64,000 bases of DNA from Nitrosopumilus sp. (GCA_965238275.1 OZ250186.1:32001-96000); one strand, 5' to 3'. Shown: positions 29,762 to 58,979, counted from the first letter of the stretch. Notes: generated by a model from the sequence alone, not told the origin. Numbers and translations: made by a program.

Positions 29762-29899
29762 TGTTAACTTGTCGGCACTTGGGCAGCGGATGTTAACCGT
29801 TGGCACCTGAACGCAGACTGTTAACCGTTGGCACCTGCTCAGGCACGCCGTACGTTGGTTGGGTGATGCCAGAATATGGGTGTTAACCGTCGGTACCTG
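29762..29899 (+). repeat. Array of four ~19-bp TGTTAAC...GGCACCTG motifs
   Basis: Copies at 29762, 29791, 29819 and 29881; 29791 and 29819 are identical (tgttaaccgttggcacctg). Confidence 0.85.
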
Positions 29900-30193
29900 T
29901 CGGCATGATGGCGGCGCAGGCGCGGAGCATGGCCGGAAAGTGGCACTCTTGTGAGGTCTTGATCTGCAAGCCTGTCCAGACTTGGCATGACAGCAGAGCA
30001 TACCTGGAAAATGGCAATCCGCTAGCAAACAGATGCTGGGCGTGCATGGGGTACTCAAAGCGCGATGTCAGGCCATGTGTCGCACGCAGACATGCGTGGA
30101 CATCACCAGAATGATTCCGTCCCCTGTCTGGATGCACTTGTCTTACCGGTGTCGATTCAGAGACGCTGCATCTGGATCAGATTCAACACGCTG

Positions 30194-31075
30194 CTAAAAA
30201 TTGTAAAACGATTTTACCGAATCAACCATGGTGTCAAAACTAAAGTCACCCCCAAACGCGGTCTCTTCCAAACTTGTCCTCTTTCCTGTGTTCTTGAGCA
30301 TTGCGTCGAGCTGACTTATGCATTCGGCAGCATGGGATCGCGGATTTGAGTTGGGTTTTGTGCATTGTTTCTTAAACAATCCACGCACCTTTTTCATGTC
30401 CGGGTCGTTGTTCTTGAGCATCCTGAACGCGTCATACGCGTCAAAGTGGTTTCTCTGCCTCCCGCTTGAACCTATGATGAATAATTTCGTGGCAAGTTGT
30501 TCCTCCAAGGAGAGGTGTGTTACTTTGGGCTGCTCAAGCCCCAGCAACTCCAGATCGACGATCGTGTCTATCGGACCATATACCGGCTCATCAAAGACGC
30601 GGCATGTCTTGCACACTTCGATCTTTGGGATTTCTTTTATCTTGTACCGGCCCAGCGACTCTCGGTATCCCATTTTGATAAAACGCCACCTCTGGCTGTC
30701 CTGGGTGATTTTGATCGGCGTCGTGCATCCCCTCGACAACCCATACTGTATAATGTCGTCCTTCAGGCCACGCACGTGTCTAAAGGTGAACCCACCACGG
30801 CTATTGGGATCAAAATCCGCGTCAAACGAGAACCTGTGATCTGCCAGCGGCACGGCGCTCCTGACAGACAGCCCGCCCTTCAAGCTGAGTCTTTCTTTGT
30901 AATATCCGTCTTTCATGGCAGTGATCATGTACAGCATATCCAGCACGCACACTTCGGACAGGATGAATGGCGCGAATTCTTGCCTTGCAAACCGCTCATG
31001 GTACTCGTCTTTGACAATAGACAACGGATCGTCCAAGTTGATCAGTCTGTCATCAATAAAGAAAAAAATTCCCAA
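30194..31075 (-). CDS. abiEii: AbiEii/AbiGii-family nucleotidyltransferase toxin
   Basis: LKGGLSV...HRFSFDADF NTase motif, LEEQLATKL, RNHFDAY. Confidence 0.85.
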   Translation of the reverse strand: MGIFFFIDDRLINLDDPLSIVKDEYHERFARQEFAPFILSEVCVLDMLYMITAMKDGYYKERLSLKGGLSVRSAVPLADHRFSFDADFDPNSRGGFTFRHVRGLKDDIIQYGLSRGCTTPIKITQDSQRWRFIKMGYRESLGRYKIKEIPKIEVCKTCRVFDEPVYGPIDTIVDLELLGLEQPKVTHLSLEEQLATKLFIIGSSGRQRNHFDAYDAFRMLKNNDPDMKKVRGLFKKQCTKPNSNPRSHAAECISQLDAMLKNTGKRTSLEETAFGGDFSFDTMVDSVKSFYNF

Positions 31076-31078
31076 CTC

Positions 31079-31852
31079 TCAATTGCCGACAGCGCGGACC
31101 TCCTGTCTGTATGGCACTCCGTCCACCCACCGTGCCCGACAATCGTCTGCTTGCATGACAGACACGCGTCCAGGGCGCCTTTCAAAATACTTGCTCTTTT
31201 GCACGATGGCACCCATCAGGCCCACCAGCGGCGCGTGCGTGAATATGTGCATCTCTGCAGGACCCACCGGCGACCCGGACTCGTAGTGCTGTAGCCGACG
31301 AGCGTGCGGGCCACCCACGTACGAGGGTATCATTCTGAACAGGGCAGCGACGTCTCCGCTGGCGTCGATCCATGCCTTGACGGACTCCATGTATTCTTCA
31401 AGCCACGCGCGCGCCGATCCATCTTCTGCCGTTGCCGTAAAGTCTGTGACATTCACGAGACCAACATGCTCCATCCTCTTCAGTGCCAAGTATACCGCCT
31501 TCCTGCTAAAGTGCATGTCCTTTGCCAAATCTGCGGCCCTTCTGGGCGGACCGGTGGCAAGCACCAAGAAGAGGGCGTATGGGATTCTGTTTCCAAGTAC
31601 CTTAATCTGCGTACGGTTCACGCGCAACGGCATCGTTGACACGTGCAGGTTCGGGGGGCTCTCCACAAACGTACCGCGACTGCCTATGGTGCCTTCGTCT
31701 CTGAGCTTTGATTTAATTTGGTAGAAATACTTGCTGTATTTGGCATACCCCATCTTCGTGCCCATTTCTGGCGGCTTCTTCTGGGTCAGCAGGTGCCTCA
31801 TCTTGTAGATTCTTCGGATGGTATCGGCGTGCCGTATCTGTTCGTATAACAT
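31079..31852 (-). CDS. HTH-containing putative antitoxin (AbiEi-like)
   Basis: Winged HTH (AADLAKDMHFSRKAVYLALKRME..GLV); YVGGPHA; 3 nt upstream of the toxin. Confidence 0.6.
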   Translation of the reverse strand: MLYEQIRHADTIRRIYKMRHLLTQKKPPEMGTKMGYAKYSKYFYQIKSKLRDEGTIGSRGTFVESPPNLHVSTMPLRVNRTQIKVLGNRIPYALFLVLATGPPRRAADLAKDMHFSRKAVYLALKRMEHVGLVNVTDFTATAEDGSARAWLEEYMESVKAWIDASGDVAALFRMIPSYVGGPHARRLQHYESGSPVGPAEMHIFTHAPLVGLMGAIVQKSKYFERRPGRVSVMQADDCRARWVDGVPYRQEVRAVGN

Positions 31853-32139: not shown

Positions 32140-32158
32140 CAGGTGCCGACGGTTAACA
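32140..32158 (-). repeat. Inverted consensus copy of the TGTTAAC motif
   Basis: caggtgccgacggttaaca is the reverse complement of tgttaaccgtcggcacctg. Confidence 0.8.
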
Positions 32159-32325
32159 CGCACACTCCGACATCAATCAATCAATGAATATCCCTCCAAG
32201 CATAGCGATGTCTCCGCTATTCCGATGACCAGCCTAAATATACCAAGCATGCCGTTTGGTTCCCTGCCTGTCCGGCCTATGCCCCAAGGGGAGATTCTGA
32301 GGATCATCGCCTGTCTAGGGTAGAA

Positions 32326-32880
32326 ATGCGTAAACTGAAAAACGACCAAGTCTTGAACTCGGGTAGTCCGATGTCCGAAGAGGTTGCAGGGATGCTCAGT
32401 GTCAGTCTTGCAGGTTCTCCATTCCACGACTATTTTCACAAAGACGTAACCTTGGTTCCCATACCAGGCAGCTCACGACTGAAGAAGGACACTCTCTGGG
32501 TACCAGAGCGCATAACCTCGGCGTTGGAAAAGCATGATCTGGGGACAAGCATCCAGATTCTTTATCGGGATGTGCCACTGCGACGTTCGTCTACCAGCTT
32601 GGCTAAAGACAGACCCAAGGCACATCAGCATTACGGCTCCATGGCAATACAGAAACCGCTACATGACCCCAAAGAGATTGTTCTTGTGGACGATGTGGTA
32701 ACGCGGGGCGCCACGTTGTTGGGAGCGGCAAACAAACTTGCCGATGCCTTTCCCGGTGTACGCATACGCGCGTTTGCAGTAATGAGGACAATCAGCAATC
32801 CTGATTGTTTTGAGGGGATCTGCAACCCTTGTACGGGGAACATATCATTACGGGGCAAAGATACGTTTAGATCTCCCTGA
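32326..32880 (+). CDS. ComF-like phosphoribosyltransferase (N-terminus possibly frameshifted)
   Basis: LVPIPGS, IVLVDDVVTRGATL PRPP-binding motif. The frame stays open upstream (AYAPRG...) with no in-frame start. Confidence 0.8.
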   Translation: MRKLKNDQVLNSGSPMSEEVAGMLSVSLAGSPFHDYFHKDVTLVPIPGSSRLKKDTLWVPERITSALEKHDLGTSIQILYRDVPLRRSSTSLAKDRPKAHQHYGSMAIQKPLHDPKEIVLVDDVVTRGATLLGAANKLADAFPGVRIRAFAVMRTISNPDCFEGICNPCTGNISLRGKDTFRSP

Positions 32881-33247
32881 GCCTATGCGCAGTCGCGCAT
32901 AGTCTATTATATCATCGCGCCTAAAACGTCATGTGTGACAGCTTTGTCTGCATCGTCAACATTCTGCACGTCCTGATGCCCCTCTACCCATCGGCCTTGC
33001 CCAACGCGTGAGTCGTAATTCAGGTCTGCATAGAGGGTATGCCCAAGGAACACAGCCAAACTGGTCTGTGCGAGGCTGCCATCATATCCATGATGGTAAA
33101 GTCTGGGCTGAGACTTGGGATGATGGGCAACCACAACGGGACCGATGGGCTTCGGATGCACGATTTGTTTGCGGGATTTCGCAAGGATCTCAAGGACAGG
33201 TTCAGTGGGCTCGTTTAGGGCTTTTATACTAACTTGCCATCGGTTGC

Positions 33248-33665: not shown

Positions 33666-35726
33666 TTACGAGTCCATCATTTCGTTTATTTTTCTAAAAA
33701 TTGTTTCAAAGTTTTTGACTAATTCGTTTGGAAGTGATCCAATATCTGCTCTGCCCAGTTCGTCTAAAATTGCACGATCTGGTCTATTCTTGTGAAAATC
33801 GCCCAAATCGTTTTCTTTGAAAAAGTCTTCAATTTGCTTTACAATCATAGGTTCGTGAGAATCAAGAGTTATGTCTGTTATTTTTTTTGACTCTAACTCT
33901 TCTTGATAAGTAGATTTAACGAACTTTAGATAATAATCTGGTGGAAATATGTCTTCAATAGACATATTTTTTGTTTTATCAAAAATCTCATTTATCATAC
34001 AAACTTTTTTATCTCTTAAAATTTTATTCTTCACTATCGATTTGTATGCATGTTTGCCGTCATTATCTGCATCTAGAAGCACCGCAACGTCTAGTTTTTG
34101 TGAGTTATACGTGCTTGCAAAAAGAATAGATCTTGTTGCACCTCCTGCCGGAACAAACACAAAGTCGTTTTTTAGATGGGTCTTTCCAGCTGACTCCAAC
34201 AAACTCGAAGCACCATCCAGGAGCCAAAAATCGGTCATTCCCTCTACTATCAGGTTTTTCTTTCCTACAAACATGGATTGCGCCATAGTGTAATGAAGCG
34301 CAGATTGCAATGGAAATAAAGCATCACGATCACTGTCCCAAACTTCGTCTGATATGTGAGATATTTTTTGAGTTGTTTCTCCTTCTAATTTTGTTTCTTT
34401 TAGGGTAACTGTATGAATAGAGTCGGGTTTTGTTAGGTCTACCATGAATGGAGAATGCGTTGAATACAGAATCTGGTTTTTCTTTGCAAGTATGGGCAGT
34501 ACATTTTTGAGAAAATCTTTTTGTCCGATAGCATGTAAAAATAATGCAGGTTCGTCAAGTAAAATTATTGTGTCTTTGTGTCTTCCCTCAGACTCTACGC
34601 TAAATACAGTATAAAAAGAGAAATACCATTGATACCCCCTGCTTCTTTCTTCAAGCTGTAGTTTTATCCTATCTTTTTTATTAATCACCCAGACTCTAAG
34701 ATCAGCCCCATTTACAGAAAATTCTATATCGTGATCATTTTGTGTCCATATGCTATCAATTTGTTCCGAAACCTTCTTTGATGCAAGACTCAAAATTCTA
34801 TCTAGTCTATCCTTGTTTTTTCGTACCCGCTCACGATTTTTTCCTTCTTGACCTAGTTTTAACAATTCATGTGCATCCAAACCTCCAAGATCTAGCAAAG
34901 CTTTTGCAGTTTTTTCATCATCATCCAAATTGTTTTCGTCAAGTTTTGTCACAAAAGTTGGCAAATGAATTCTGCTATCAATGATTCCAATATTTTCAAA
35001 GTAAATGAATCTTGGTAGATTGTTTATGAGATAATTCTTAACATTTTCAGTTGAATCCTCTGTTATTTCAGAATTAACTTTATCAAGAATAGAATAAATT
35101 TTGCTTTTTTCAGATAATACATCATCAGGAATTGAAGTTAAAATTGCTTTGAAATTTTCTATGTTTAGCTTAATTTGATTAAGAATATCATGCTGCCTAA
35201 TATTTAATTCATCTTTATTCCCAGTTCCAATTATATTTAACATAGTTATCGCATCATTCCTATATGTTTGTCCGTTTTCATGCAATGCTGGGTCGATAGA
35301 ATCAAGAATTTCAAGTATTGGTTGCAGGTAGTTTTTATGAAATACAGCAAAATGAATTGCCTCTTGGCCGGCGTCAAGATGGCAGATTAGCTTCATGTTT
35401 TTCTTTTTACTGAATTTGATTTCATTTATTGCCATTTGTCCGTTACTAATTTCTTTTATTTGCCGCCTTTCTTCATTGGTAAGTTTGAAAGTAGCAGTAA
35501 CAAAAATATCTTCAGGATCATAATCATCATAGTACCATGCCGGATTTTCTGTTAAATCATCAAAATCTGTATCTTTAACATGATTGATTTTTTTTAAAGC
35601 ACGCATCAGATTTGTCTTTCCACTTTCGTTAATCCCTACAAAAGTTGTAATGTTTTCGTCTACTTTGATCTCTTTAGAGTCTTCTATAGAGCGATATTTT
35701 TTAATGTGAAAACTAGTAAGGCGCAC
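33666..35726 (-). CDS. OLD-family ABC-ATPase + TOPRIM nuclease
   Basis: YRSI, GINESGKT (Walker A), SRGYQW, LLDEP, STHSP, IVEGMTD and LLDAD TOPRIM motifs; AT-rich. Confidence 0.85.
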   Translation of the reverse strand: MRLTSFHIKKYRSIEDSKEIKVDENITTFVGINESGKTNLMRALKKINHVKDTDFDDLTENPAWYYDDYDPEDIFVTATFKLTNEERRQIKEISNGQMAINEIKFSKKKNMKLICHLDAGQEAIHFAVFHKNYLQPILEILDSIDPALHENGQTYRNDAITMLNIIGTGNKDELNIRQHDILNQIKLNIENFKAILTSIPDDVLSEKSKIYSILDKVNSEITEDSTENVKNYLINNLPRFIYFENIGIIDSRIHLPTFVTKLDENNLDDDEKTAKALLDLGGLDAHELLKLGQEGKNRERVRKNKDRLDRILSLASKKVSEQIDSIWTQNDHDIEFSVNGADLRVWVINKKDRIKLQLEERSRGYQWYFSFYTVFSVESEGRHKDTIILLDEPALFLHAIGQKDFLKNVLPILAKKNQILYSTHSPFMVDLTKPDSIHTVTLKETKLEGETTQKISHISDEVWDSDRDALFPLQSALHYTMAQSMFVGKKNLIVEGMTDFWLLDGASSLLESAGKTHLKNDFVFVPAGGATRSILFASTYNSQKLDVAVLLDADNDGKHAYKSIVKNKILRDKKVCMINEIFDKTKNMSIEDIFPPDYYLKFVKSTYQEELESKKITDITLDSHEPMIVKQIEDFFKENDLGDFHKNRPDRAILDELGRADIGSLPNELVKNFETIFRKINEMMDS

Positions 35727-35809
35727 AGGCTCTGACTGAGTCCGATCTTTATAAATTTCTCTATGATGTTGGATGTGTTGTAGTAATAAGAAACACCCTC
35801 ACGCATACC

Positions 35810-36070
35810 TATATCGACGCGCAAAAGTCCGTGTGCGAGTAATCGAAGAGTTTGTAGATCAGATCTCATTCCAGCAATACATGGATGACACCAAACTGGA
35901 GGAACTCGAAAAGGCATACAAAAAGGAAAAGGACCACAATGTCTAGGTCAGGATGGTCGCGGTACACATGGTGCGCGTGCGCAACATGCCTGTGGAATAG
36001 GCTGCTGACATCTTGGACGGTGCCCCACTTGTCCACAATCGGCTGCGCCGCTACGACGGAGGAGACCTCA
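35810..36070 (+). pseudogene. IS630-family remnant (left end + degenerate N-terminal HTH)
   Basis: TATATCGACGCGCAAAAGTCCGTG end; MDDTKLEELEKAYKKEKDHNV*VRMVAVHMVRV with stops; homologous to 62287 (-) and 49718 (-). Confidence 0.75.
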
Positions 36071-37236
36071 TGCTGTATAGTGAAAGATGCAATGTATGAT
36101 CTTTTTGGACCGTCGAACCGCCTCAAGATGTTAATTACGAATCAAGTTTCCATATTCGTAGTTTAGATTATTTATGCGGCCTGCTTGATCAAGCGTACGA
36201 TATGGACAGCAACTGGGATTGCGTTATTGAACGGATCAGAAGCATGGACAAAATTAGCGAGAACCGCAGAAAGCGACTTGTCAGTTCTGTTACGGTGTTA
36301 AGGGACAATCTGGGAAAGGACTGGTGGCCGGATGCCGGCCATCCGCTATTGTTTGGCATCCAAAACACCCTCAATACTTATGCAGACTGGCTTGTTTCTA
36401 GACTGGCAAATGACATTATCAGCATGAAGAGCGCAGGGATTGGGGACATCGTGAAGAGAATCCGTAATTCCACAGAATATTTCGGTGTCGCCGCGGAGCT
36501 TGAGGTGGGCGGCGTGTTGGCCAGAAATGGTTACGGATTGGCAATCGGACCCAAGGCGGGAAAGAAGCAACCGGATTTTCTCTGTAAAAAGAACGGTGAT
36601 GAGTTTCTTGCAGAGGTAAAGATGCTAGAGACAAGCGAAAAGGCCAGGGAGGCTACCCGAACCAGCGAACAGATAATGGCAACATGCCGTCCGATTTTTC
36701 CCGTAGGGACCATCACCAGATCGTTGCCATCCCATGAACTTGAGGATGTCACATGCAGATTGAAGGATGTGGTCAATCGTGTCAGTGTTGGCTCTCCACG
36801 GGAGGCTGATATCCCTGGCACTCTGAAGCTATACCTGGTGCATCCTGATGATCCTGACAAAGTCCGCATGTATGACAAGTGGTGCCGAGCACCGGAAAAT
36901 TCTGGCATTCCAGGCGGTCACGGCCTGTCATGCCCGCCTGTAGACAGGACGGATCTTGATCGCATAATATCCAAAATCAATCGATTTTCGGCAAAACAAC
37001 AGATTCCAAAAGAGAGAATGGGCATTCTGTTCATGACCGGCTGCTTCACGATTATGGATGGGGATGTAGAGGCAATGGTTGCCAGTCTTCTCCCGCACGT
37101 AAAGAAACTGCCCCATGTTCCTGCTGTGGTGCTGGTCGCCATCAGAACATTCACGCTTTCGCCTAATAGAAGATATGCGTAATCCGGAACTTTTTCAAAC
37201 TCCGCGCTGACATGTTAGCCCTGCTGTCAAAAATTT

Positions 37237-37920
37237 ATGATCCATCCAATTAAAACCAGAATATGCCGGTTCATACTGTTGTCGAATCAGGAAACAAGTG
37301 ACCTGCAAAAAGAGAACAAGGCTCTCAGAGACATGATCAAGCGCCAGGACGCTGACATCAAGCGCTTGGAGGCAGCCGCCAAGCACGAGCAAAGCCTGTG
37401 GGGTACGCGAGACGGCTCCGAGTCTGGAGCCGCAGGAGAGCCCGCCCTGCTGCATCGCGTGGAGGTCTTTGATGAGATCATCAGAGTCGAGAAAAATCTT
37501 CATGACGCGACGCTGAAGTGCAGGGAACAGTTCCAATACATGCTTGACAGGGTCGAGGCATGGATAAGGCAAAGCGGCAAATCCCCGCTCTTCAGGAACG
37601 ACGAGACGAGGGCGTCGGATCCCGGGAACCGCTGCAAGCTGTACCCCAGGCACGCGCTGCTCATGGCGCTGATGTACAAAAAGGGCAACCCCACGCAGGG
37701 CGCACTTGCGGCATTCTTTGGAATAGACCAGGCAACCGTGTCCCGGTATATCGATGTACTAGACGGGGTGCTTGAGGCGGTGCTGCCCACCGCTGCCAAC
37801 ATCTCAAAGGAGATAGCAGGCACGGAGACAAAAGAGGATCTCAAAAAAATAATTTCCGGGCCGGACGGGGGCATCATGATGATCGACGGCACGCACTGCC
37901 CCATAAGAAAATATGCGTAA
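37237..37920 (+). pseudogene. Truncated IS5-like transposase (copy A)
   Basis: FFGIDQATVSRY HTH, IDGTHCPI, then cut by the copy B left end. Confidence 0.85.
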
Positions 37921-37974
37921 TCCCCCTGTTCACATCGATAAATTTAGATCAGGCACGATCGCGTCTCACATCAA

Positions 37975-39346
37975 ATGCCAGACTCGCCTGATCAGATCAT
38001 GCACAGATTGGAACAGGAAAACAGAAGCCTAAAAAATATTCTAAAGCAGAAAGACAAAAAGCTGGAACAGAAAGACAAAAAGCTGGAACAGAAAGACAAA
38101 AAGCTGGAACAGAAAGACAAAACCCTAAAAAATATTCTAAAGCAGAAAGACAAAAAGCTGGAACAGAAAGACAGAAGCCTAAAAAATATTCTAAAGCAGA
38201 AAGACAAAAAGCTGGAACAGAAAGACAGGGAGTTGGGCCTTGAACGCGGCCTGTGGAAGAGCAGGAACGATGGCTGGAACCCCGGCAAGGGGCCCGCGTT
38301 GCACCTGCTAGAGGTGCTAGACGGCATAATACGCGACGGGGACAAGCTCCGCCATGTCACGCTGGCAGACGGGGAACAGTTCCGGTACATGCTGGAGCGG
38401 GCCAAGGTGTTTCTGACGCATTCGGGCCAGATGCCGCTGTTCCGCGATAACGCATCCCGGGTCTCCGATCCCGGAAACCGGTGCAAACTGTACCTGAGAC
38501 ACGCACTGCTCCTAGCACTTATCCGCAAAAAGGACAACCCCGCCCAAGGCGTGCTTGCCGCATTCTTCGGGATAGACCAGACCACCGTGTCCCGGTACAT
38601 TCCGGTGATGGATGCGATGCTGACAGGAATACTTCCGACGGCAGACAACATATCCGAGGAGGTAGCTGCTGCCCCGACCAAGGAGGATTTCAAGAAGATC
38701 GTGCCCGGGTCCGACGGGGGCGAGATATTCATAGACGGCACGCACTGCCCCGTGCAGCGCCCGTCTGTAAAGTCAGTCCGGCGCATGGGATACTCCGGCA
38801 AGAAGAAAAAGTTCACCAACAATACCAACGTGTACACCAACCGGGACGGGGTGGTGATCGGCATATCAAAAAGCACCGTCGGGTCAGTCGGCGACATCAC
38901 GTTGCTCAAGGAACGCCCCATGCCGTTTGGAAAGTGGGAGGAGGCGATGCACGATCCGGACCTGCCAGAATCAGACAGGTGCCACCCCTTCGTCGACCGC
39001 GGCTACCAGGGAATCGCAGATCACCTGCCCGGCACCACGCCGGAGATCCCGTACAAGAAGACCAGGGACACGCCGCTGACGCCGGAGCAAAAAAAGCACA
39101 ACCACAGGATCAACTCCACCAGGGTGTTGGTGGAGCACACGATAGGCAGGCTCAAGCGCTACGCGCGTCTTGCCGACCCGTACGACGGCAACGCGGCCCC
39201 AGTTCAACAGGGAGTTCAACGTGATCACCGGGCTGGTAAACCTGAACCTTTTGTGGGACTGCATGGAAAAGGGTCCGCCACCACCGGGGCAGTGGAAGAC
39301 GTCAGTAGACTGGGACAGGGCCTGCTCCGAAGCTCCGGTCAAGTAG
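37975..39346 (+). pseudogene. IS5-like (DDE_Tnp_4) transposase, +1 frameshift near C-terminus
   Basis: IDGTH, YSGKKK, VDRGY, RVLVEHTIGRLK. An extra C at ~39197-39200 shifts out QFNREFNVITGLVN, which aligns to the paralog at 55101. Confidence 0.8.
38016..38228 (+). repeat. 21-bp/54-bp coding tandem repeat (QKDKKLE heptads)
   Basis: Repeated cagaaagacaaaaagctggaa and ctaaaaaatattctaaag blocks. Confidence 0.9.
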
Positions 39347-40078
39347 AATTCAGGGCACGATGAAGTGCTGCAAGGCTGCGCACGTCATTTTGGATTTTGG
39401 GGTGAACAGACTTGCCACATACACGACACGAGCAGTTTTAGGCCGTATTTTTCCGGTTTTTTATGGCCGGGTTGGCAAAATGGGTGGATTACGCATATCT
39501 TCTAATCGACGCCGAGTCAAGGACGAGGACGATTATATTGATGTTGATTACCGCCTTGCTCCATACATTATGGAAAGAGTGCTGATCATAAAGAACAGAT
39601 CATGTCAGTTTTCCTTTGATTGCGGCGTGCTGGCAGACATGTATGCTGAGCGGAACAAGTTCGCATACAGATAGGACAAACTGCAAGATCAATAAATGGG
39701 GAAAACATTTTGGACAGATACCATTTATGAGCAGACTACACAAAAAAGACAAGGGCACCACAACTTGGACAAGATAGTGCTGAGCATGTTCATTATTTGG
39801 AATAGAATGCCCATGGCAGGAGTAGCGTGTAGACTGGGAATAGCCTGTCATGACGGACTTCGAGACAACGGGACTCTTGTGACCAGAATGGTAAACTTGT
39901 CGTTCCAGCCGCCGTTGCCGCCGCTGCTGTCGTAGCGGGTGCGCGCCAGCGCCTCGTGTCTCCCCCCGCCGGGTCCAATCTCGATGCAGTCTTGCCAAGT
40001 CCGTTTGACTCGCACGTGGCTGAACCGGGATCCAAGAACCTGAAAAAACCCCTTTTAAGCCACGCTCGCTCCGTCTGC

Positions 40079-40315: not shown

Positions 40316-40369
40316 GAGGCTGGAGCGTCGCAGGCACGGAACTCGATAAAATTATTTTGTCTTGATATA

Positions 40370-40395: not shown

Positions 40396-40432
40396 GATAA
40401 TGTTATAAATCCATTTGACGACATACTATTCC

Positions 40433-41815: not shown

Positions 41816-41876
41816 ATGCCTGCCTGCCTTCCCGCGCAAGGCGCGCGTCGTCACGAACGAAGATCCTGTCACCGCT

Positions 41877-43148: not shown

Positions 43149-43338
43149 GAAACCCACGCGCGTCCTTTTGTTAAAAAACCTCCCCCGTGAAGACGTCGGC
43201 GGCAAAACGATCCGCCGGATGCCACGCGCGCAAGGCCGCCACCCTTGGAAGTTTAATAAATCAAGTGAGCACATGCGTCGGTAGGATGACGATTGCAGGA
43301 AACCGAATCACGCCAAGGCCAGTCCCGGCCTCGCGCGT

Positions 43339-44268: not shown

Positions 44269-44316
44269 CGCGGCACGCGACGAAGAAACGCGGGTACGGA
44301 TGACGATAACCCTGCC

Positions 44317-48560: not shown

Positions 48561-49424
48561 ATGGTTGAGAACATAGTATCGAGAGAAAAGAAAATTCAGA
48601 TATCCCCCAAAAAGGATTATCTCGTACCCACAGATAGTGAAAAGGGATTTCCATTACTGCGCATAAGTGATCATTATTTTAGCTTTAACGACCTGATAAT
48701 AGACTATGAAACTAGAGAAAGATTGGAGTATGTCATTTCGGAAAACCAGAACCTTAAGAAACTGAGAGCATATGGACTTAAACCCAAGCAAAGGATCCTG
48801 TTTTGTGGTCCTCCTGGAACCGGCAAAACTCTGACTGCCAAAATAATGAGCAGTGTCATAGGATACCCGTTTGTGTATGTCTTGTTTGATTCCATTATTT
48901 CGTCATTCCTAGGACAGACGGCTACGAATCTTAGAAAAATCTTTGATTTTATCGAGCAGGACAACTTTGTGGTTCTTTTTGACGAGTTTGACATCATAGG
49001 AAAGAAGCGGGATGACCCCCAAGAACATGGGGAGGTGAAAAGAGTCGTGAACAACTTCATGCAGATGATGGACAGCTATGACGGTAGCAGTGTCCTGATT
49101 GCGGCTACAAACCACCCCCAGCTGTTGGACACTGCCGTATGGAGGCGTTTTGACGAAATGATTGGGTTTGGACTTCCAAACAAGCAACAAAGAAAGAAAC
49201 TATTCTCAAAATACCTTGGGGTTTTAAAGAAGAGTGTAGATGTGGACTTGGAGGATCTTGCAGGCAAGACCTCAAAATATTCTGCAGCAGACATATCTAC
49301 TATCTGCGAGGACGCATTAAGAAGAAATGTCATTTACGGCAAATCTGAAATAAAAAACGAGGATGTCATCTGGGCCATAAGAGAACAAACACGTAGAAAA
49401 GGTGTTATGCTAAAAAAACTATGA
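48561..49424 (+). CDS. AAA+ ATPase (IetA-like)
   Basis: GPPGTGKT, SSFLGQTATNL, LFDEFD, GEVKRVVN, AATNH, WRRFD. Confidence 0.9.
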   Translation: MVENIVSREKKIQISPKKDYLVPTDSEKGFPLLRISDHYFSFNDLIIDYETRERLEYVISENQNLKKLRAYGLKPKQRILFCGPPGTGKTLTAKIMSSVIGYPFVYVLFDSIISSFLGQTATNLRKIFDFIEQDNFVVLFDEFDIIGKKRDDPQEHGEVKRVVNNFMQMMDSYDGSSVLIAATNHPQLLDTAVWRRFDEMIGFGLPNKQQRKKLFSKYLGVLKKSVDVDLEDLAGKTSKYSAADISTICEDALRRNVIYGKSEIKNEDVIWAIREQTRRKGVMLKKL

Positions 49425-49524
49425 TTGACTTTAGTCTGTTGAACACATGATCACATGGAAATCTCTAAAGCCCACAGTACTGCCGGCTTACCCCTAGGTT
49501 AGTATGTGTTCACATCTGACAGAA

Positions 49525-49794
49525 AATAACCCTCCGAAATCAAAACGCCTCAACCAATCGCGAACCCATCTGGAAGATCGCATGAGATTCTTGGCGGTTT
49601 CGTCTATGCCTTTTTTGCGAACATAGACCATGTAGGCGACAAGCATTCTTGCGACTACCCTGTATTCTTTTTCATTTTTGCATGCATTCTCAAATTCTTC
49701 TCATTTGGTTTTTTCCATGAGTAGCATGAGGCGTCAAGATCTGCATGCCTACCGTTGACACTGTCGTTGGAACGAACCTTTGATCGTCAGTATA
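49525..49794 (-). pseudogene. IS630-family remnant between ATPase and protease
   Basis: TATACTGACGATCAAAGGTTCG end; MEKTK*EEFENACKNEKEYRVVARMLVAYMV...WVRDWLRRF. Confidence 0.72.
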
Positions 49795-50156
49795 GATCAT
49801 GAGAATCAAGACATCTGATTGAATACAGACAACGAGAAATACATCAGACGCGGTCAGGTGTTAATCATCCACAACGACCCGCCACCACGCGCGTATATTC
49901 CTTGACTGAGGAACCAGAGATTCTGGCCCAGACGTTTGTCAGAAGGCGCTCCCCAAAGATCAAATCGTGATGGACGAGTAGGCCGACGAAGAGGACAACA
50001 TTGAGTAGACTCTGGTCACTAGTCTTCCGTCAAGTGCAGACTTGTCTAAGGACTCTGGTGCATGCGCCCAGATGCGCAAAAACAATCTTCATAACACGCA
50101 CAAGACAAAGAAATTGTATAGTTCATATATACACAAACAACTTTCAAGATCACACA

Positions 50157-52457
50157 ATGACTGACAGCCACAAACATCTGGATCTTCCCACCACAAATGA
50201 AAAAGTCCAAAGAAAAATGTACGGAGGTGGCATGTATGATAAAAATAAAAACATCAAAAAGTTTGAAGAAGGTCAGATCAAGCGGCTGACTGCAATCAGC
50301 AAGGAGTTTGAGGGGACAGAACAAGAATTTCCAAGCTATGATCAGGAACTGGTATTCAAGGTAAAGACATCTCAAAGAGTAAGTGACAAAGAGTTTAGAC
50401 AAAGGTTGAAGGGAGTCGATTGTGAAACTATTGCTTCCGCTTTGGGTAAAAATGCAGAATGGGTCGTTTCCGCGATAGATCCAAGTTTTAAAAAACTGAA
50501 GGAAAGGATCTCTACAAGGGCGACAAAAGATAAAGCAAACTTTATTGACGGGATTTTAGAATTTTTGAGAATTCGATTTGAAGACAAGCTTGGGGAGAGT
50601 CTTAAAAACAATCCTCTTGGCCTAGATGAAAAGACACGGCTTGTGGTGAGTCTGACCAAAAAAGAATCAGATTCAAATAATGAGAAGCTAAACTCCGCAT
50701 TGGATTTGATAAGAAATTTGTCCAAGGAAAATGGCCTTGAAATACATGATAGTCTGGTCACGGAAAATGTTTGCCTGTTATTGCTTGATGGGACTCTTGA
50801 TTTTGCAAAACAAATTTCAGGCATAGACATCGTTGAGAGCATTGATAGGCCCCCAAGATTCGCACTGGAAAAAATCGTTGACAGTACAATTCTCGACGTG
50901 GGCAAAAACATACCTCCAAATGAAAAAGATCATGGGATACTGGTCATGGATTCAGGTATAATTTTACATCCACTGCTGGAAGATGCTGTGGATGAAGATG
51001 AGGGTATCGTGGGGCTACCAGACATAAACGAACACGATGATCGCCGTCACGGAACGATGGTCAGCGGTATAGCGTTGCACGGGGACATCGAGGACAGCAT
51101 TACAAACAAAAAATTTAAATCCAACATGTGGATCTATTCTGCCAAAATTTTTTACGAAGATAACGGCGCAATTAAAATTCCGAATGAAACACTCATTGAA
51201 AGTGAAATTAAAAATAATTTTGAAAAGATAAAACAAAAATTTCCTAGATGCAGAGTAGTTAACTTATCGTTTGGCAATCCGGAAAAAATAATGTCAGATG
51301 GACAAAGACAGTTTGATCTGGCTGTGTTGATTGATGACTTAGCAAACCAGTACAGAGACACAGTCTTTGTCATCTCTGTAGGCAATGTAAAAAAAATTTA
51401 TTATGATGATCACCATTATCCAGACTATCTCTTATCATCGGATCTCGACGTAAAGATCATGGATCCAGCAGCATCCATTCACGCATTATCCGTTGGTGCC
51501 GTCCAAAAATTTGGCCACCTGATAGATCAGCCCTCGAACATAACCAGAGTTGGTCCGGGGCTAAACGGAATGATAAAACCTGATCTGGTTGAAAACGGAG
51601 GCGGATTTGACAGCGAAATAGTTGTTCTAAATTCAGACTACAGAGACAGATTGTTTACACTCACTATGGGAACAAGCTTTAGCTCACCAAAAATTGCAAA
51701 CTTTGTAGCTAGGCTCTTCAACCGTTTTCCCAATGCGAGCAGAAATCTGGTCATGGCATTGTTACTATCCTCGGCAAATCTTCCACAGGTCATTCCGGAC
51801 GGTTTCCCTAAAAGAAACTCAAAGACAAAAAATGAGAACTGGTTAAAACTGATGAGTATCTATGGGTTCGGAAGGCCCGTCCTGAACAACGCGTTATCTT
51901 CTGATGATGACAGGGTTGTCTTTAAGCACGAGGGCAAAATTGGCATGAATCAAGTACAGTATTTTACAATAAATTTGCCGGATGAATTTGTCAGCATAAA
52001 AGGCAAAAGACATATCTCGGTTTCACTAGTCTATGATCCCCCTATCAGAAAAACTAGGGCCGATTATTTTGGAGTAAGAATGGAATTTCATTTGTTTAGA
52101 AACAAGTCATTGGACGAGATTAGGGAAAAATACGATTTGATTAATTTGACGGAATCAGAAGATAGAGAAAACAACGTGCCTGAAAAGTTATCAAAATTTG
52201 AAATTGTTCTACATCCTAAACCCTCTCTTAGGAAAAGAAGCAACCATCAGAAAGGCGTTAGAACCTTGACAACAAGGACTAGATTAAACAGTAAGCAGCC
52301 TCTTGTATTGGCCATATTATCGCAAAAAATATGGGATCTTGATGACAATTTCAAGCAGGATTTTGCAGTTGTCATGACCATAAAACATGAGCAGTCCATT
52401 GATTTGTATAACAAGATAAAAATAGCCAACCAGATTCAAACACGTGTACAAGTTTAG
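50157..52457 (+). CDS. S8 subtilase (IetS/Y4bN-like)
   Basis: Catalytic triad VMDSG, HGTMVSG, GTSFSSP; IKPDLV; YGFG; no signal peptide; AT-rich. Confidence 0.9.
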   Translation: MTDSHKHLDLPTTNEKVQRKMYGGGMYDKNKNIKKFEEGQIKRLTAISKEFEGTEQEFPSYDQELVFKVKTSQRVSDKEFRQRLKGVDCETIASALGKNAEWVVSAIDPSFKKLKERISTRATKDKANFIDGILEFLRIRFEDKLGESLKNNPLGLDEKTRLVVSLTKKESDSNNEKLNSALDLIRNLSKENGLEIHDSLVTENVCLLLLDGTLDFAKQISGIDIVESIDRPPRFALEKIVDSTILDVGKNIPPNEKDHGILVMDSGIILHPLLEDAVDEDEGIVGLPDINEHDDRRHGTMVSGIALHGDIEDSITNKKFKSNMWIYSAKIFYEDNGAIKIPNETLIESEIKNNFEKIKQKFPRCRVVNLSFGNPEKIMSDGQRQFDLAVLIDDLANQYRDTVFVISVGNVKKIYYDDHHYPDYLLSSDLDVKIMDPAASIHALSVGAVQKFGHLIDQPSNITRVGPGLNGMIKPDLVENGGGFDSEIVVLNSDYRDRLFTLTMGTSFSSPKIANFVARLFNRFPNASRNLVMALLLSSANLPQVIPDGFPKRNSKTKNENWLKLMSIYGFGRPVLNNALSSDDDRVVFKHEGKIGMNQVQYFTINLPDEFVSIKGKRHISVSLVYDPPIRKTRADYFGVRMEFHLFRNKSLDEIREKYDLINLTESEDRENNVPEKLSKFEIVLHPKPSLRKRSNHQKGVRTLTTRTRLNSKQPLVLAILSQKIWDLDDNFKQDFAVVMTIKHEQSIDLYNKIKIANQIQTRVQV

Positions 52458-54859: not shown

Positions 54860-54942
54860 TTTGACGCAACGCAACGGGTGGATCGAGTTTATCAGATTTA
54901 TGCTACGGCAAGCAACACCGCATCCTAAATTCGGGGCATATT

Positions 54943-56624
54943 AGATCTCATGCAGAATGTGCCTGATTTAAAAAACTGAATTAAATTGGGTTATTCCCAC
55001 GTGCGGCACCACATGCGGCCGAATATCCACAGAATCGTAAAGCATGCCAATCCAAGAAGGATAACCGAAACGTTAAGATCGGTGATTTTTACGCCACACC
55101 GTGATGGCAATGCTAGTCGATCCAACGGTGCAGAGATTACGGCAGGAAAACGAGGCGCTCAGGGAGTCGGATGAATCCTGCCGGCAGAGGATCAGGGCCC
55201 TCAGGGAAGCACGCAGGACAGACCGACAGAAGTGCGAGGCGCTCAAGGAACGCCTGACTGATCACTGGACCGTCACGTCGAGGGTTCTCGACGACATCAT
55301 AAAATATCCGGAATTACTGCACGCCATGACGCTGCGCACCCCGGAAAAGTTTGGCCACACGCTGAACCGCCTCGAGGAGCTTTTGGAGCGGAACGGGGAG
55401 ACTGCGCTCTTCCGGGAAATCGAGAACAGATCGAAAAACTCCGGGAGCAGGCGCATCCTGCCCCTGAGGCACGCGTACCTGCTGTGGCTGTTTCGGACAA
55501 GGCTGAGCATACCGCAGGAAGCCCTTGCCGCGATGTTTGGCGTCGACCAGGCCACCGTCTCCAGGTATCTCCCGTTGATGACCAGGCTGCTCGGCGAGAC
55601 AGGCACGGCGCCGCACAAAATCAGTGAGGCTGTACAAAAGACCAAGACACTCGAGGAGAGCAAGAAGATAATACCCGGCAGGAGGGGAGGAGAACTGATG
55701 GTGGACGGCACGCACAACCGGGTCAGAAGGTCCGCGGACAAGGAGAGACGCAAAAAGACGTACTCTGGCAAGAAGAAGGCGCACACGTACAATACCAACA
55801 TCGTGATCAACAAGCGCCGCGTGATAGTGGCGATAAGCAAGACCGTTCCGGGCAGCGTCCACGACAAGACCCTGCTCAACGAGGATCCGCCAAACCTTGG
55901 AATCATTACGGCAAGGATGGGCCAGAAGGACGTGCCCGAAAAAGAAAAGCCTGACGTCCTGATGGACAAGGGCTACCAAGGGACAAGAGAGGAATATCCC
56001 GGATGGCACATCAGGCACCCGCACAAGAAAAAGCGTGGAGCCGACAAAAAGACCGGCGGCCTGACAAAGAAGCAGCGCGCCTACAACAAGAGGGTAAACA
56101 GCTCCCGTGTGGCCATAGAGCACGTCATCGGAAGCCTGAAACAGTACAAGAGGCTGACTGACCCGTACGACGGCACCGAGGAGGAGTACAACGACGAGCT
56201 CAACGCGATTGCGGGAATGGTAAACCAGGATCTGATGTGGGACGAAATAAAACTCAGGGACGCGGACCTTCTCAAAAGGCTGGCCGAAAAAAGGGCGCGC
56301 CTCTGAGACAGGGCGGCACGAGCCGCCTGACGGAGTGAAAGGCAGGTGGCATCAGGCAGTGCAGGAATGTCGCGCACGGCATCCAATATTTGTGCAAATT
56401 CCCCCACCATTCCCCATGAAACAACCTGCCGCCCCGGGGACGGATGCCGCACATCCACAGGACGTGCCTTATTTTCCAATACTGGAAACTGGATTTTTCA
56501 CATGGACGTGCAAGACAAATTTGTAAAATATACGGCAGACGAGATTTTCAAATATGGCCACGGCTAGCGCAGTTCTGACATGATTTTATGATTTGCCACG
56601 TCAGGCACATTCTGCATAGGATCT
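54943..56624 (+). mobile_element. IS5/ISL2-like element, complete
   Basis: 24-bp TIRs agatctcatgcagaatgtgcctga / tcaggcacattctgcataggatct (22/24); 3-bp TSD ATT. Confidence 0.9.
55101..56306 (+). CDS. IS5-like (DDE_Tnp_4) transposase
   Basis: FGVDQATVSRY, VDGTH, YSGKKK, GSVHD, MDKGY, RVAIEHVIGSLK. Confidence 0.92.
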   Translation: MMAMLVDPTVQRLRQENEALRESDESCRQRIRALREARRTDRQKCEALKERLTDHWTVTSRVLDDIIKYPELLHAMTLRTPEKFGHTLNRLEELLERNGETALFREIENRSKNSGSRRILPLRHAYLLWLFRTRLSIPQEALAAMFGVDQATVSRYLPLMTRLLGETGTAPHKISEAVQKTKTLEESKKIIPGRRGGELMVDGTHNRVRRSADKERRKKTYSGKKKAHTYNTNIVINKRRVIVAISKTVPGSVHDKTLLNEDPPNLGIITARMGQKDVPEKEKPDVLMDKGYQGTREEYPGWHIRHPHKKKRGADKKTGGLTKKQRAYNKRVNSSRVAIEHVIGSLKQYKRLTDPYDGTEEEYNDELNAIAGMVNQDLMWDEIKLRDADLLKRLAEKRARL

Positions 56625-56645
56625 ATTAGTGTTCATTAGTGACTT

Positions 56646-56716
56646 TGTTAAGTTATCGGCACTTGGCCAATATTGTTAACTCTCGACATCTGATGGGTGT
56701 TAACTTACGGCATCTA
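56646..56716 (+). repeat. Array of three TGTTAA-motif copies
   Basis: tgttaagttatcggcacttg (56646), tgttaactctcgacatctg (56674), tgttaacttacggcatcta (56698). Confidence 0.75.
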
Positions 56717-56755
56717 ATATGCATGGATCTAAGCTGCCTGTAACTGGATGCAACC

Positions 56756-57364
56756 TTATGGGTCAAAGTCGTCAATATGCTTCTGTGCCCGTCCGTTTTT
56801 GGGTTTGCCGTTTTTTACCATGTCTGCCAGCTCCTTTTTGTACGATTCACGCGCAGGAAGGGTGCCAGATTCTCCCATAGCATTGAGCCGTTGTTTTTCC
56901 TTCTGGAACAGTCCGATTCGCTCCAGCGGTCTCTGTTTTCTCTTCAGCATGCGGTAATGCGTGAACGGCACCGAGTCCTCTATTTCCTCGGCATCAAACG
57001 ACTTTGCTATCGCGAGCAGATCCGTTATGTAGCCTTGGCTAAGACCAAAGTCCTTGGACAGCGCTGCGGTGTAGTTTGTTACCTCAAATCTGTCTTGGAC
57101 GGATACGGCAAAGTCCAAGAACAGCTTGCCTGCCCCGAAATACGCGGAGCTTGGTACCGTTTTCTTGGGATTGCCGAGTTCGTCACGGAACCGGCTTTTT
57201 GCGGATTCCACCATGTAGGAATACTGTGCGTTCAATTCGGCTACCTTCTTGGCTGCATCCTGGCCAAGATCCGCGTAGTACGCCATGTCGATCATGGCAC
57301 TTGTCTTGTGCCCTCCGGCAACGGATACCCGTACCATACGCACCGGGATGGCGTTCAAAGCCAC
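56756..57364 (-). CDS. Hypothetical DNA-binding protein, DUF1016-N/YhcG-N-like
   Basis: YFGAGKLF...ALSKDFGLSQGYI...VPFTHYRML resembles the HTH and SWSHY motif of the DUF1016 N-terminus; overlaps the ATPase stop. Confidence 0.5.
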   Translation of the reverse strand: MALNAIPVRMVRVSVAGGHKTSAMIDMAYYADLGQDAAKKVAELNAQYSYMVESAKSRFRDELGNPKKTVPSSAYFGAGKLFLDFAVSVQDRFEVTNYTAALSKDFGLSQGYITDLLAIAKSFDAEEIEDSVPFTHYRMLKRKQRPLERIGLFQKEKQRLNAMGESGTLPARESYKKELADMVKNGKPKNGRAQKHIDDFDP

Positions 57365-58881
57365 ACCTTGTGCAGTATATCCTCAAAATGTGCGAACGTG
57401 GTGACTGCATCCATCTCAATTTCGTCGTTTTTGGCCTTGATGAGCGACGAAATGACCACGCGGGTGAGGTTGTAATCGTGCAGCGTGCGGTTGTTTTCGA
57501 CGCGCTTGTGGAATGGGTGTCCTACGTTGTACACCACGGCTCCGCTGGACGGATCCAGCCACCCCTCGCGCCCGTCTTGCGGAGCGTCAAGCGGTATGAT
57601 GCATATGCCCCGGCTTTTGCGGGGTTTGGCTTTTCCCGATTGTTCGGACTTCTCGTCTTCGAAGTGACTGGTTCCGTTCTGGTTGTCGCCGGGGGCATCC
57701 TCATGGTGGCCGGACGCCCCGTTTTCCGAATGCATTGAAGTCTGGGAGCCTTGCATTTCGCCTATTTTGATGTCGCCGTCATCGGATCGGACCAGCAGGT
57801 CTTGCTTGACTATCTTGGCAAACGGGTTGAATTGCTTCAATTCCGGCATGCGCAACGCCTTGTTGAGGCGTTCCGTGAGCTCGTTCACCACCACCTGCGT
57901 GTCGTTTATCTCCTTTGACACGTCGCGCAGGTAGCCGTTGGATTTGAGAATTTCATAAAAGTTATTCTTGACGCTGGCGAGTATCTTGTTGGTATGAAAG
58001 TTCCGTTCAAAGTTTTCCTTGTTGGTCGTGAGATGATCCGCCAAGACCGTCACGTCGGCCATGCAGAATATGCGCTTTTCATGCTGTGGCCTTACTTGCG
58101 CGATCCAATCGACCTGTTCGTTCTTTATCCTCTTACCGTGGACGTAATACGTTACGTGTCGCAGGTCGGCAGATATCTCGTCGTCTGCCACCCAAACGCG
58201 ACACGGCATGTGGTAGCGTTTGTGTTTTGACGTTTTTTGGAACGACTTGCCTTTCGGCTTCCATGGCAGCACCGGTATGTCCCCTATTATCAGCGAAAGC
58301 CGCTTCGAGATGAGCGCCGCGTTGAACCAGAACCGCAGGCTTCCTTCCATGTTCTTTATCAGCCACGCGTATCCGGTTTCCGGCACCCTTACAGTATATG
58401 TGGTGCCGGATGCGTGGTCGGAAACGGCATGCCCTGTTATGGTCTCCATGCTCACCCCGTTGCCGTTAGTTTCCCACACGATCTTGTCCGCCCCATCTCT
58501 TGATCTTTCCCGCCACATCCTTGAGGCGAGCACGTCGCTACCTTTTCCGGTAACGGTTGTGATTTCGGCGTCTGGCCATGCAGCCATGAATATCTTTGCG
58601 CCGACGCCTGCAAACCCTATACCTTTCCCCTTCTCTTTTGTGGACACCGCCACCGTATGATAGTTCACGAAATCAACCTCGTTCATCGGAACGCCGTTGT
58701 TATGGAACGTTACGTGACAGCCGCTTGGGTAGCGTTTAAGGTCGATGTTGATCGTGTCAGCCCCGGCGTCCATGCCGTTGGCTACCGCTTCGAGCACGAG
58801 CACTTCTATGTCCTCGTATTCGTACATACCAAGCAGGTTTTGTAGCATGTTGAGCAAGTTGACGGTCATCGGTTGCTTCAT
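57355..58881 (-). CDS. GHKL (MORC/Hsp90-like) ATPase
   Basis: EAVANGMDA, HNNGVPM, GKGIGFAGVGAK, SGTT motifs; S5-like ADHLTTNKENF; YNVGHPF C-terminal motif. Confidence 0.85.
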   Translation of the reverse strand: MKQPMTVNLLNMLQNLLGMYEYEDIEVLVLEAVANGMDAGADTINIDLKRYPSGCHVTFHNNGVPMNEVDFVNYHTVAVSTKEKGKGIGFAGVGAKIFMAAWPDAEITTVTGKGSDVLASRMWRERSRDGADKIVWETNGNGVSMETITGHAVSDHASGTTYTVRVPETGYAWLIKNMEGSLRFWFNAALISKRLSLIIGDIPVLPWKPKGKSFQKTSKHKRYHMPCRVWVADDEISADLRHVTYYVHGKRIKNEQVDWIAQVRPQHEKRIFCMADVTVLADHLTTNKENFERNFHTNKILASVKNNFYEILKSNGYLRDVSKEINDTQVVVNELTERLNKALRMPELKQFNPFAKIVKQDLLVRSDDGDIKIGEMQGSQTSMHSENGASGHHEDAPGDNQNGTSHFEDEKSEQSGKAKPRKSRGICIIPLDAPQDGREGWLDPSSGAVVYNVGHPFHKRVENNRTLHDYNLTRVVISSLIKAKNDEIEMDAVTTFAHFEDILHKVWL

Positions 58882-58932
58882 GTTTCATTGAATTGTTGTG
58901 ACCTTGTTAAAAAGTTAAGTTACTCTGGATTC

Positions 58933-58979
58933 TGCTACGTTATCGTCACCTGAGCGCGACTGTTAACCATCGTCATCCA
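58933..58979 (+). repeat. Two more TGTTAAC-motif copies, 28 bp apart
   Basis: tgctacgttatcgtcacctg (58933) and tgttaaccatcgtcatcca (58961); a further tgttaa at 58905. Confidence 0.6.

Follow-up and report, generated by a model that had tools for sequence, protein, structure and literature searches.

Repeat arrays at the borders of defence operons in a Nitrosopumilus island and their origin in an IS1595-family transposase gene

What do short, regularly spaced repeats do between the genes of an archaeal defence island? The question is raised by a stretch of 64,000 nucleotides from a Nitrosopumilus sp. genome (GCA_965238275.1, OZ250186.1:32001-96000), which we will call the window and whose positions are counted from its first letter. 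A first-pass annotation of this sequence had noticed ten intergenic copies of one motif of about 19-20 bp, set around two unrelated two-gene operons (an AbiE operon, and a GHKL ATPase gene with a small partner gene), and had taken them for the possible cis-sites of an undescribed system that mobilises or organises defence cassettes. What emerges from our analysis looks like transposon debris rather than a new system for moving defence genes, and the debris can be traced to the 3' coding end of an IS1595-family transposase gene.

The repeat itself is real. All ten sites were found where the annotation had placed them, by scanning the window with the pattern TGTTAAC-N2/3-TCGGCACCTG, which has 17 specified positions, and they fall into four loci (array 1, a solo inverted unit, array 3 and array 4; Table 1). 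They keep to the pattern to various degrees: the inverted unit at 32140, on the minus strand, shows no mismatch, the units at 29762 (with a 3-nt linker), 29791, 29819 and 29881 show one each, those at 56646 (3-nt linker) and 56674 two each, the one at 56698 three, and those at 58933 (3-nt linker) and 58961 four each. Eight sites with at most three mismatches were seen where 100 block shuffles predicted 0.35 (by class, 1 vs 0.00 without mismatch, 4 vs 0.00 with one, 2 vs 0.01 with two and 1 vs 0.34 with three); the four-mismatch class (5 vs 2.81) and the five-mismatch class (18 vs 21.95) are both at chance level. The annotation's own 19-mer consensus, allowed up to three mismatches, gave 5 matches against 0.02 expected, a number that none of 100 shuffles reached. 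Taken singly, the units at 58933 and 58961, which belong to the four-mismatch class, are thus non-significant; we accept them because of their 28-bp spacing, their common strand and the alignment of array 4 to the other arrays above shuffled controls. Indeed, array 4 scores 39 against array 1 (null 18.8 +/- 3.3, maximum 33) and 40 against array 3 (null 20.0 +/- 3.1), and array 1 scores 47 against array 3 (null 19.5 +/- 2.9).

The repeat is also confined to the island. The core part of the window (1-29000) holds no site with four mismatches or fewer, only five-mismatch matches (10 rows) at chance level, in agreement with the annotation, which had seen none there. The sites are effectively intergenic, as had also been stated, since the sole open reading frames (ORFs) that overlap them are a 109-aa antisense ORF over array 1, for which no homologue was found, and a 62-aa ORF without a Pfam match. 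A search against Rfam returned nothing, and Tandem Repeats Finder did not report the arrays. Within the window, the motif is therefore confirmed as a non-random, island-restricted repeat.

Its description as a single motif needs correction, however: the repeat stands, but it comes in two forms that follow a fixed order. The A unit (TGTTAAC-TTR-TCGGCACYTG, with the 3-nt linker) is always first, and the B units (TGTTAAC-NN-TCGGCACCTG, with a 2-nt linker) follow it. Every array is preceded by the edge GG(A)TTCTG and consists of one A and one to four B units about 28 bp apart. The 28-29-bp spacing of the annotation is borne out in array 1 (29 and 28 bp), array 3 (28 bp) and array 4 (28 bp), and spacings of 62 bp (array 1) and 24 bp (array 3) also occur. 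When the A-B consensus is slid along the window, only four loci rise above background, with scores of 40-67, the next best position scoring 30. We also considered that arrays 3 and 4 might have the full five-unit layout of array 1, and dropped this idea, their tails not being significantly similar to it (p = 0.06 and 0.65).

The two operons are bracketed as first described. Array 1 follows the 3' end of abiEii, the inverted B unit is found upstream of abiEi, and 32140-32184 pairs with 29855-29899 in a 45-nt inverted repeat of 80% identity around the AbiE operon (score 54, null 20.5 +/- 3.0); to the right of 32184, no further inverted units or array could be detected at significance. The GHKL operon stands between two direct arrays. 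On the left of array 1, an inverted copy of the array edge is found, and the region 29676-29797 folds no better than shuffles (z = -0.11); an extended palindrome tested there was not significant.

Table 1. Repeat loci of the window and the genes and elements next to them (positions in the 64,000-nt window).
Feature	Position	Strand	Remarks
Array 1	29757..29899	+	edge GGTTC; A 29762-29781; B 29791-29809, 29819-29837, 29881-29899
Degenerate unit of array 1	about 29851-29880	+	within array 1
IS1595-family transposase 3'-end pseudogene remnant	29900..29970	+	directly after last B of array 1; lacks 55 bp present in L008/L011
Inverted copy (14/16) of array left edge GGTTCTGTTRAYTTRT	29701..29716	-	40 bp left of array 1
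Solo inverted B unit	32140-32158, within 32140..32184	-	perfect unit and 26 nt of the spacer found ahead of the last B in array 1
Array 3, decayed	56641..56716	+	A 56646-56665; B 56674-56692, 56698-56716
Array 4, most decayed	58927..58979	+	edge GGATTC; A 58933-58952; B 58961-58979
Tyrosine-recombinase-like gene, 453 aa	27964..29325	+	left border of the island; about 430 bp upstream of array 1
AbiEii (30194-31075) and AbiEi-like (31079-31852) operon	30194..31852	-	between array 1 and the inverted B unit
Partner gene (56756-57364) and GHKL ATPase (57355-58881)	56756..58881	-	between arrays 3 and 4, which are in direct orientation
Unrelated IS, DDE_Tnp_4 transposase	54939..56628	+	28-nt terminal inverted repeats; 18 bp left of array 3
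XerA-like paralogues, convergent, 465 aa, 43% identity	40415-41815; 41877-43274	+; -	segment of GC 0.61

Further copies help to understand where these units come from. A genome collection was scanned with one strict 19-mer, a search that leaves degenerate copies outside its reach and a collection from which the window's own genome is absent; 18 of the 20 loci returned were lone chance matches in unrelated organisms, with no second unit nearby. The two others, L008 and L011, are A-B loci and lie on one and the same other thaumarchaeal chromosome (2.46 Mb, GC 0.55), near genes for CdvA, the proteasome and ThyX. Their arrays (at 9934 in L008 and 9968 in L011) have the GGTTC edge, an A unit and a perfect B unit; the distance from A to B is 28 bp in L011 and 62 bp in L008, where a degenerate unit stands between them.

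The clue to the origin lies 3' of the last B unit. There, L008 and L011 translate in frame as VNRRHLPRY(I/V)(D/N)EFAG(K/R)HN(I/V)R.MD....AALARGM.G, and in a protein search restricted to longer proteins 7 of the 12 candidates had E values of at most 0.01 (1e-17 to 5e-5). All seven carry PF12762 (DDE_Tnp_IS1595), two of them also PF12760; the full-length matches (310-331 aa) end in ..YHHISAKHLPRYVDEFAGRHNIRSMD..ARGMVGRRLTYGDLIGKEPR (C-terminal stretch YHHISAKHLPRYVDEFAGRHNIRSMDTADMMVALARGMVGRRLTYGDLIGKEPR), and plasmid-borne relatives of these proteins are annotated as 'IS1595 family transposase'. In the window, the remnant that follows array 1 aligns to L008 10075-10146 with a score of 62 (null 21.7 +/- 3.7) and to L011 10075-10120 with a score of 56, neither score being reached in any of 500 shuffles. 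No such remnant could be detected 3' of array 3 or at array 4. The A unit is coding as well: in L011, this unit and its spacer encode TYRHLSA, in frame and four codons before KHLPRY, and tblastn aligns this peptide to the TYFHLSA/THHHISA of transposases. A regular expression of that block, built from 117 database sequences, has a single match in the six-frame translation of the window, L008 and L011 (104 kb), and this match falls exactly on that A unit. The rest of the protein is missing. Residues 1-250 of the transposase, searched by tblastn with four full-length relatives, have no counterpart in the window, L008 or L011; no ORF of the window matches PF12762, and only about the last 45-52 codons are kept, so there is no complete gene with Zn_Tnp_IS1595 and DDE_Tnp_IS1595 domains.

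B units that run into the transposase 3' end and an A unit that encodes T-Y-x-H-L-S-A together show that the arrays arose by tandem duplication of 28 nt from the 3' end of an IS1595-family transposase gene. The duplicated stretch covers the codons of the family block ..T-Y-x-H-L-S-A-K-H-L-x-R-Y.., the B unit being the inserted duplicate, and in the three best-kept copies (array 1, L008 and L011) the last unit runs in frame into the last ~45 codons of what is now a pseudogene. The undescribed cassette-mobilising system, in the form proposed, thus loses its support, because the motif is IS-derived (IS, insertion sequence), with the units physically continuous with the transposase end in three copies.

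The units have not decayed like their surroundings. Array 1, the inverted copy, L008 and L011, from two genomes, form 6 pairs, and in every one of these the last B unit is identical at 18-19 of 19 positions; for the A units of the young copies the figure is 22-24 of 25. Identity falls to 51-59% in the spacer before the last B and to 60-76% in the remnant behind it. Between L008 and L011, 43 of 44 unit positions match, as do 75 of 99 in the remnant, whose differences are spread over codon positions 1/2/3 as 6/7/11, as in a pseudogene. Upstream of the left edge, the DNA of the copies is unrelated (4-9 identities in 25). As contiguous neutral DNA should decay together, the units appear to be constrained or homogenised, and the difference between them and their surroundings is as expected of protein-binding cis-sites, a role that these comparisons make plausible.

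What could the arrays then be? We give a little better than an even chance to the reading in which the ten sites are internal repeat units of a low-copy, dispersed and transposase-less IS1595-type derivative or relic, one of which would be marked by each array. In this scheme, we infer that the units serve, or served until recently, as recognition repeats of an IS1595 transposase provided in trans, and the near-identity that they retain beside a drifting pseudogene would be explained in this way; this most likely role is compatible with the internal tandem repeats documented in the Merlin/IS1595 superfamily (PMC8101967). The copies may have been scattered through the island by transposition or by IS-mediated rearrangement. 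Their position at cassette borders would follow from the same processes, IS insertion and IS-mediated rearrangement in an island with at least five other IS families, since ISs would land between cassettes and recombine around them. The surroundings are indeed IS-rich, both in the window (IS630, two DDE_Tnp_4 ISs, IS66 and rve) and around L008 and L011 (IS630, IS110, IS481-like and IS4/5). Dispersed homologous repeats could in addition mediate the inversion of the AbiE segment, through the inverted 45-nt pair, and the deletion or excision of the GHKL segment, through the direct pair of arrays. If IS origin and rearrangement suffice in this way, no new cassette-mobilising machinery is needed. 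We rate the arrays as an IS-derived non-autonomous repeat of unusual construction.

The IS1595 family (Merlin superfamily) offers several points of likeness. The arrays are built from, and continuous with, the 3' coding end of its transposase gene, and subgroups of IS1595 with passenger genes reportedly exist. In IS1595/Merlin elements, the terminal repeats begin with 5'-GG and 8-bp target duplications flank the element, and Merlin elements can contain internal tandem repeats (PMC8101967); here, all copies have the left edge GG(A)TTCTG in common, which begins with GG. Nevertheless, a number of observations weigh against a transposase-less IS1595 derivative. The repeated unit is coding sequence and not a terminal repeat, and the transposase-derived part begins ~10 nt from the left edge, so that hardly any room is left for a real terminal repeat. 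Within 1.5 kb to the right of any array, the left edge was not found in inverted form; the one inverted edge copy, left of array 1, is on the wrong side for an inverted right end. No conserved block could be found to the right of the remnant in any pair of copies, and a bacterial IS1595 plasmid copy (L021) is too distant to inform on ends. The 8-bp target duplication was not found in 4 of 5 copies; at array 4, an 8-bp direct repeat (AGTTACTC, at 58918 and 59079, 153 bp apart) does exist, with an estimated chance probability of ~0.1. No intact IS1595 transposase gene, and nothing of its body, lies in the window, L008 or L011, and the copy number is low, with 4 loci in the 64-kb window and 2 strict-pattern loci in the 2.46-Mb chromosome. 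With no inverted ends, no clear target duplication and few copies, the features of an IS or of a miniature inverted-repeat transposable element (MITE) are thus mostly lacking.

To these points the family itself adds others. An exhaustive profile-free search gave 421 matches with E of at most 1e-3, and we fetched 15 sequences among the 150 matches listed. The 4-codon insertion between A and B is present in one of these 15, a fragment of 75 aa (P0012) that is a sense ORF and 98% identical to L011; the other 14 read ..S.KHL.RY.. without interruption. A word search with P0012 retrieved P0012 only, which places the A-B junction in 1 protein-database cluster. Multiple subterminal transposase sites are, to our knowledge, not an established feature of IS1595. 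Finally, random IS debris does not predict that an array should recur at a distant GHKL operon in a second genome, a recurrence to which we will return. MITEs offer a similar balance: the arrays are short, non-coding, IS-derived and dispersed, with a conserved edge and a divergent interior, as MITEs are, but the terminal inverted repeats and target duplications that define MITEs were sought here and not found, and there is only a handful of copies. The annotation had named the end of a known MITE or IS as one of the outcomes that would undo its proposal; what we found is close to this in spirit, the motif being IS-derived, but no complete IS or MITE could be delimited.

A simpler history is that of inert debris, in which decaying IS1595 pseudogene fragments carry a chance 28-bp minisatellite without cis function, were spread by segmental duplication, and owe the identity of their units to having been copied recently or to short-tract gene conversion. 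Decay is evident in arrays 3 and 4, with 2-4 mismatches per unit, the number of units varies from 2 to 5 as in a minisatellite, the remnant evolves neutrally, the A-B junction is very rare in protein databases (the 1 cluster above) and neither ends nor target duplications were found, all of which such debris would predict. Against it, flanks of just 51-76% identity adjoin, on both sides, units that agree at 18-19 of 19 positions across loci and across two genomes, and the left flanks are wholly different in every copy, so that duplication of whole segments fails to explain the spread. Plain debris leaves both the contrast in conservation and the array at a distant GHKL operon unexplained, and we find this history rather unlikely.

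At the other extreme, the A and B units could be live protein-binding sites at one end of transposase-less cargo elements that carry defence operons (AbiE, and in two genomes a GHKL pair, the two pairs being 28% identical) from place to place in thaumarchaeal islands. An IS1595 transposase, or else the tyrosine recombinases of the island, would mobilise these elements in trans, and the transposase coding fragment would have been exapted as their cis-element. We hold this to be unlikely.

Another reading, which we consider quite unlikely, makes the units the core- or arm-type sites of the island's tyrosine recombinases. By imitating the 3' part of IS1595 transposase genes, the recombination site would direct integration to it; repeated integration would leave arrays between cassettes, and inverted pairs would permit a shufflon-like inversion of AbiE. 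Geography speaks for it: array 1 lies about 430 bp past the 3' end of an intact integrase-like gene at the border of the island, in L011 IS-rich DNA lies on one side of the array and core genes (TrmI, NAD(P)H-hydrate dehydratase, proteasome) on the other, and direct arrays flank the GHKL operon as the inverted 45-nt pair flanks AbiE. The conservation of the units would fit functional sites. Thaumarchaeal att sites are short, with a median length of 17 bp, protein-coding genes are among the integration targets and elements with tyrosine recombinases are found in tandem arrays (PMC6563490), which is also compatible with this reading. However, an intact integrase gene adjoins only 1 of the 6 array loci; at L008 there is just an integrase fragment of 70 aa at a distance of 3 kb, none lies within 10 kb of L011, and the two other integrase-like genes of the window (40415-43274) have no arrays. 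The 5' half of the transposase gene, expected at a second junction, was not found in any of the three sequences (window, L008, L011). As read from the sequence, the units are without the dyad symmetry that core sites have, and the integrase assignment of the gene at 27964 is weak, under all curated cut-offs (Phage_integrase E 5e-4, below cut-off; archaeal XerA model 8.5e-7, far below cut-off). Of the features of lambda-type att sites with arm-type sites, direct repeats are present and an intact integrase-like gene adjoins 1 of 6 loci; no second junction was identified.

Short conserved sites that bracket small operons, including toxin-antitoxin operons, with a tyrosine recombinase nearby, are known from pdif modules, integron attC sites and the sfx sites of shufflons. 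Here too, short conserved sites bracket unrelated small operons and a tyrosine recombinase is nearby, but the architecture of the sites is different. The 11-6-11 dyad of dif/pdif is missing from the 19-20-bp unit, which has no more than the mini-palindromes GTTAAC and CCGTCGG; unlike attC, the units are direct and tandem without palindromic architecture, and their GTTAAC(C/T) violates GTTRRRY by a pyrimidine at the third R. In addition, the units bracket only 2 of the island's cassettes, which distinguishes them from attC and pdif.

The GHKL operon itself suggests a further possibility, namely that the ATPase and its small partner, or another DNA-binding host factor, recognise the units, their transposase origin being an exaptation. 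A two-gene operon next to the L008 array, which lies on its 3' side, is a homologue of the GHKL pair of the window and has the same relative orientation (28% identity over 481 aa between the ATPases, E 7e-51; 30% between the partners, E 4e-19). A same-orientation array thus stands 3' of the partner gene in 2 of the 2 GHKL operons examined, in two genomes, and its units are conserved. Against such binding, no GHKL gene is near array 1 at AbiE, the inverted site or L011, and the arrays beside the GHKL operon of the window are the most decayed ones. The partner has no recognisable DNA-binding domain in domain scans, its nearest atlas clusters are unnamed Nitrososphaerota families, and its AlphaFold model, with a predicted local distance difference test score (pLDDT) of 56, is unusable for fold comparison; sequence searches of the Protein Data Bank with the GHKL protein and with the integrase-like protein gave nothing useful. 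We regard binding by a GHKL pair as very unlikely. The annotation had thought of the island integrases or of the GHKL ATPase as possible actors; the first link is weakened by the single intact integrase, and the second is kept alive by the recurrence of the array at both GHKL operons.

The ends of Tn7, Tn402 and Mu carry several direct units of ~19-22 bp each, starting with TGT. Such ends, with several ~20-bp transposase sites each, would resemble the 2-5 direct 19-20-bp units starting with TGT and the inverted unit beyond AbiE, but they are refuted for practical purposes and the least probable of all, as no gene for a TnsB/TniA-type transposase or an AAA+ partner accompanies the arrays, be it between them or close by (at 17216-19296, 10 kb away, there are rve genes, but these are small and of IS type), the GHKL arrays are direct and not inverted, there is no 5-bp duplication (GGTTC vs CGCAC) and the units are coding sequence of another, unrelated transposase family. 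Iterons of a plasmid origin were rejected too: island scans show no Rep-like gene, the units are coding-derived and a transposase remnant follows them. More generally, the layouts to which the periodic sites had been likened (TnsB-type ends, integrase arm sites, iterons and parS arrays) were compared here, where their features could be tested, and apart from direct repeats and the one adjacent integrase-like gene those features were not found.

If the arrays are indeed relics of an IS1595-type element, they show how debris of this type structures a thaumarchaeal defence island, and they caution that what is taken for 'periodic binding-site arrays' can consist of duplicated stretches of coding sequence. 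Should selection really act on the units, which is what the contrast in conservation suggests, they would represent an unusual reuse of a transposase-gene fragment as a cis-acting site, and this could explain the shuffling of small defence operons in Nitrososphaerota, where the biology of mobile elements is poorly known.

The remainder of the window can be described more briefly. Positions 1-27900 are occupied by core genes (RNA polymerase B, lar genes, a CDF transporter, ThiF, a multicopper oxidase), with IS66 and rve-type IS genes in between. Among them, a lar-type cluster (7976-11965) groups a PP-loop LarE-like protein, the LarC nickel-insertion protein and an AIR-carboxylase-like LarB around a dehydrogenase of the Ldh/Mdh family. 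A short ORF at 3137-3580 has a Cas12f/TnpB-type C-terminal domain (E 6e-5, below cut-off) and is probably a TnpB fragment. From 27964 on, the sequence is a defence and mobile-element island containing the weak tyrosine-recombinase-like gene, AbiEii/AbiEi, a ShosT-like phosphoribosyltransferase, an OLD/GajA-like ATPase-TOPRIM protein, two copies of one DDE_Tnp_4 IS, the two XerA-like paralogues, IetA/IetS, an IS630, another DDE_Tnp_4 IS and the GHKL pair. The last 42 bp of the integrase-like gene (29284-29325) recur 3.9 kb downstream, at 33177-33218, with 76% identity (FRQNLKDRLGGLP vs FRKDLKDRFSGLV, each followed by a stop); this repeat is either what is left of a second integrase gene or an ancient att-like duplication that encloses array 1, AbiE and the phosphoribosyltransferase.

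As for the other defence genes, the ShosT-like phosphoribosyltransferase (32326-32880, PADLOC E 2.4e-20) has no ShosA partner in the scans. The OLD/GajA-like protein (686 aa, 33666-35726) lies in the lowest-GC stretch of the window (0.36-0.41), and no GajB-like neighbour was recognised. A complete anti-phage pair is formed by IetA (AAA+ ATPase, E 7e-87) and IetS (S8 peptidase, E 5e-86) at 48561-52457, where the GC content is 0.40-0.45. The two copies of the DDE_Tnp_4 IS, at 37160-39511 and 63064-64000, are 99-100% identical, which argues that this IS was recently active; a 54-bp internal tandem repeat is found at 38047-38228.

The second chromosome has its own small particularities. Fragments of an IS630-type transposase, 79-88% identical at the nucleotide level, are common to both genomes (window 35808-36012 and 61877-62360; L008 12873-13006; L011 8640-9630), so the same IS debris is present in both islands. 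Beside the L008 GHKL operon, the integrase fragment already mentioned (13013-13222) is an N-terminal piece of the XerA-like family. An isolated copy of the motif with two mismatches lies at L008 1093-1111, on the minus strand, inside a 680-aa ORF and 8.8 kb from the array; it may be due to chance or may be a solo inverted unit like that at 32140 of the window. In L011, a GGCAGGCA-type microsatellite has expanded inside the transposase remnant, at 10100-10165; the related database fragment P0012 differs from it in the number of these repeats and in the sequence upstream of the GG edge.

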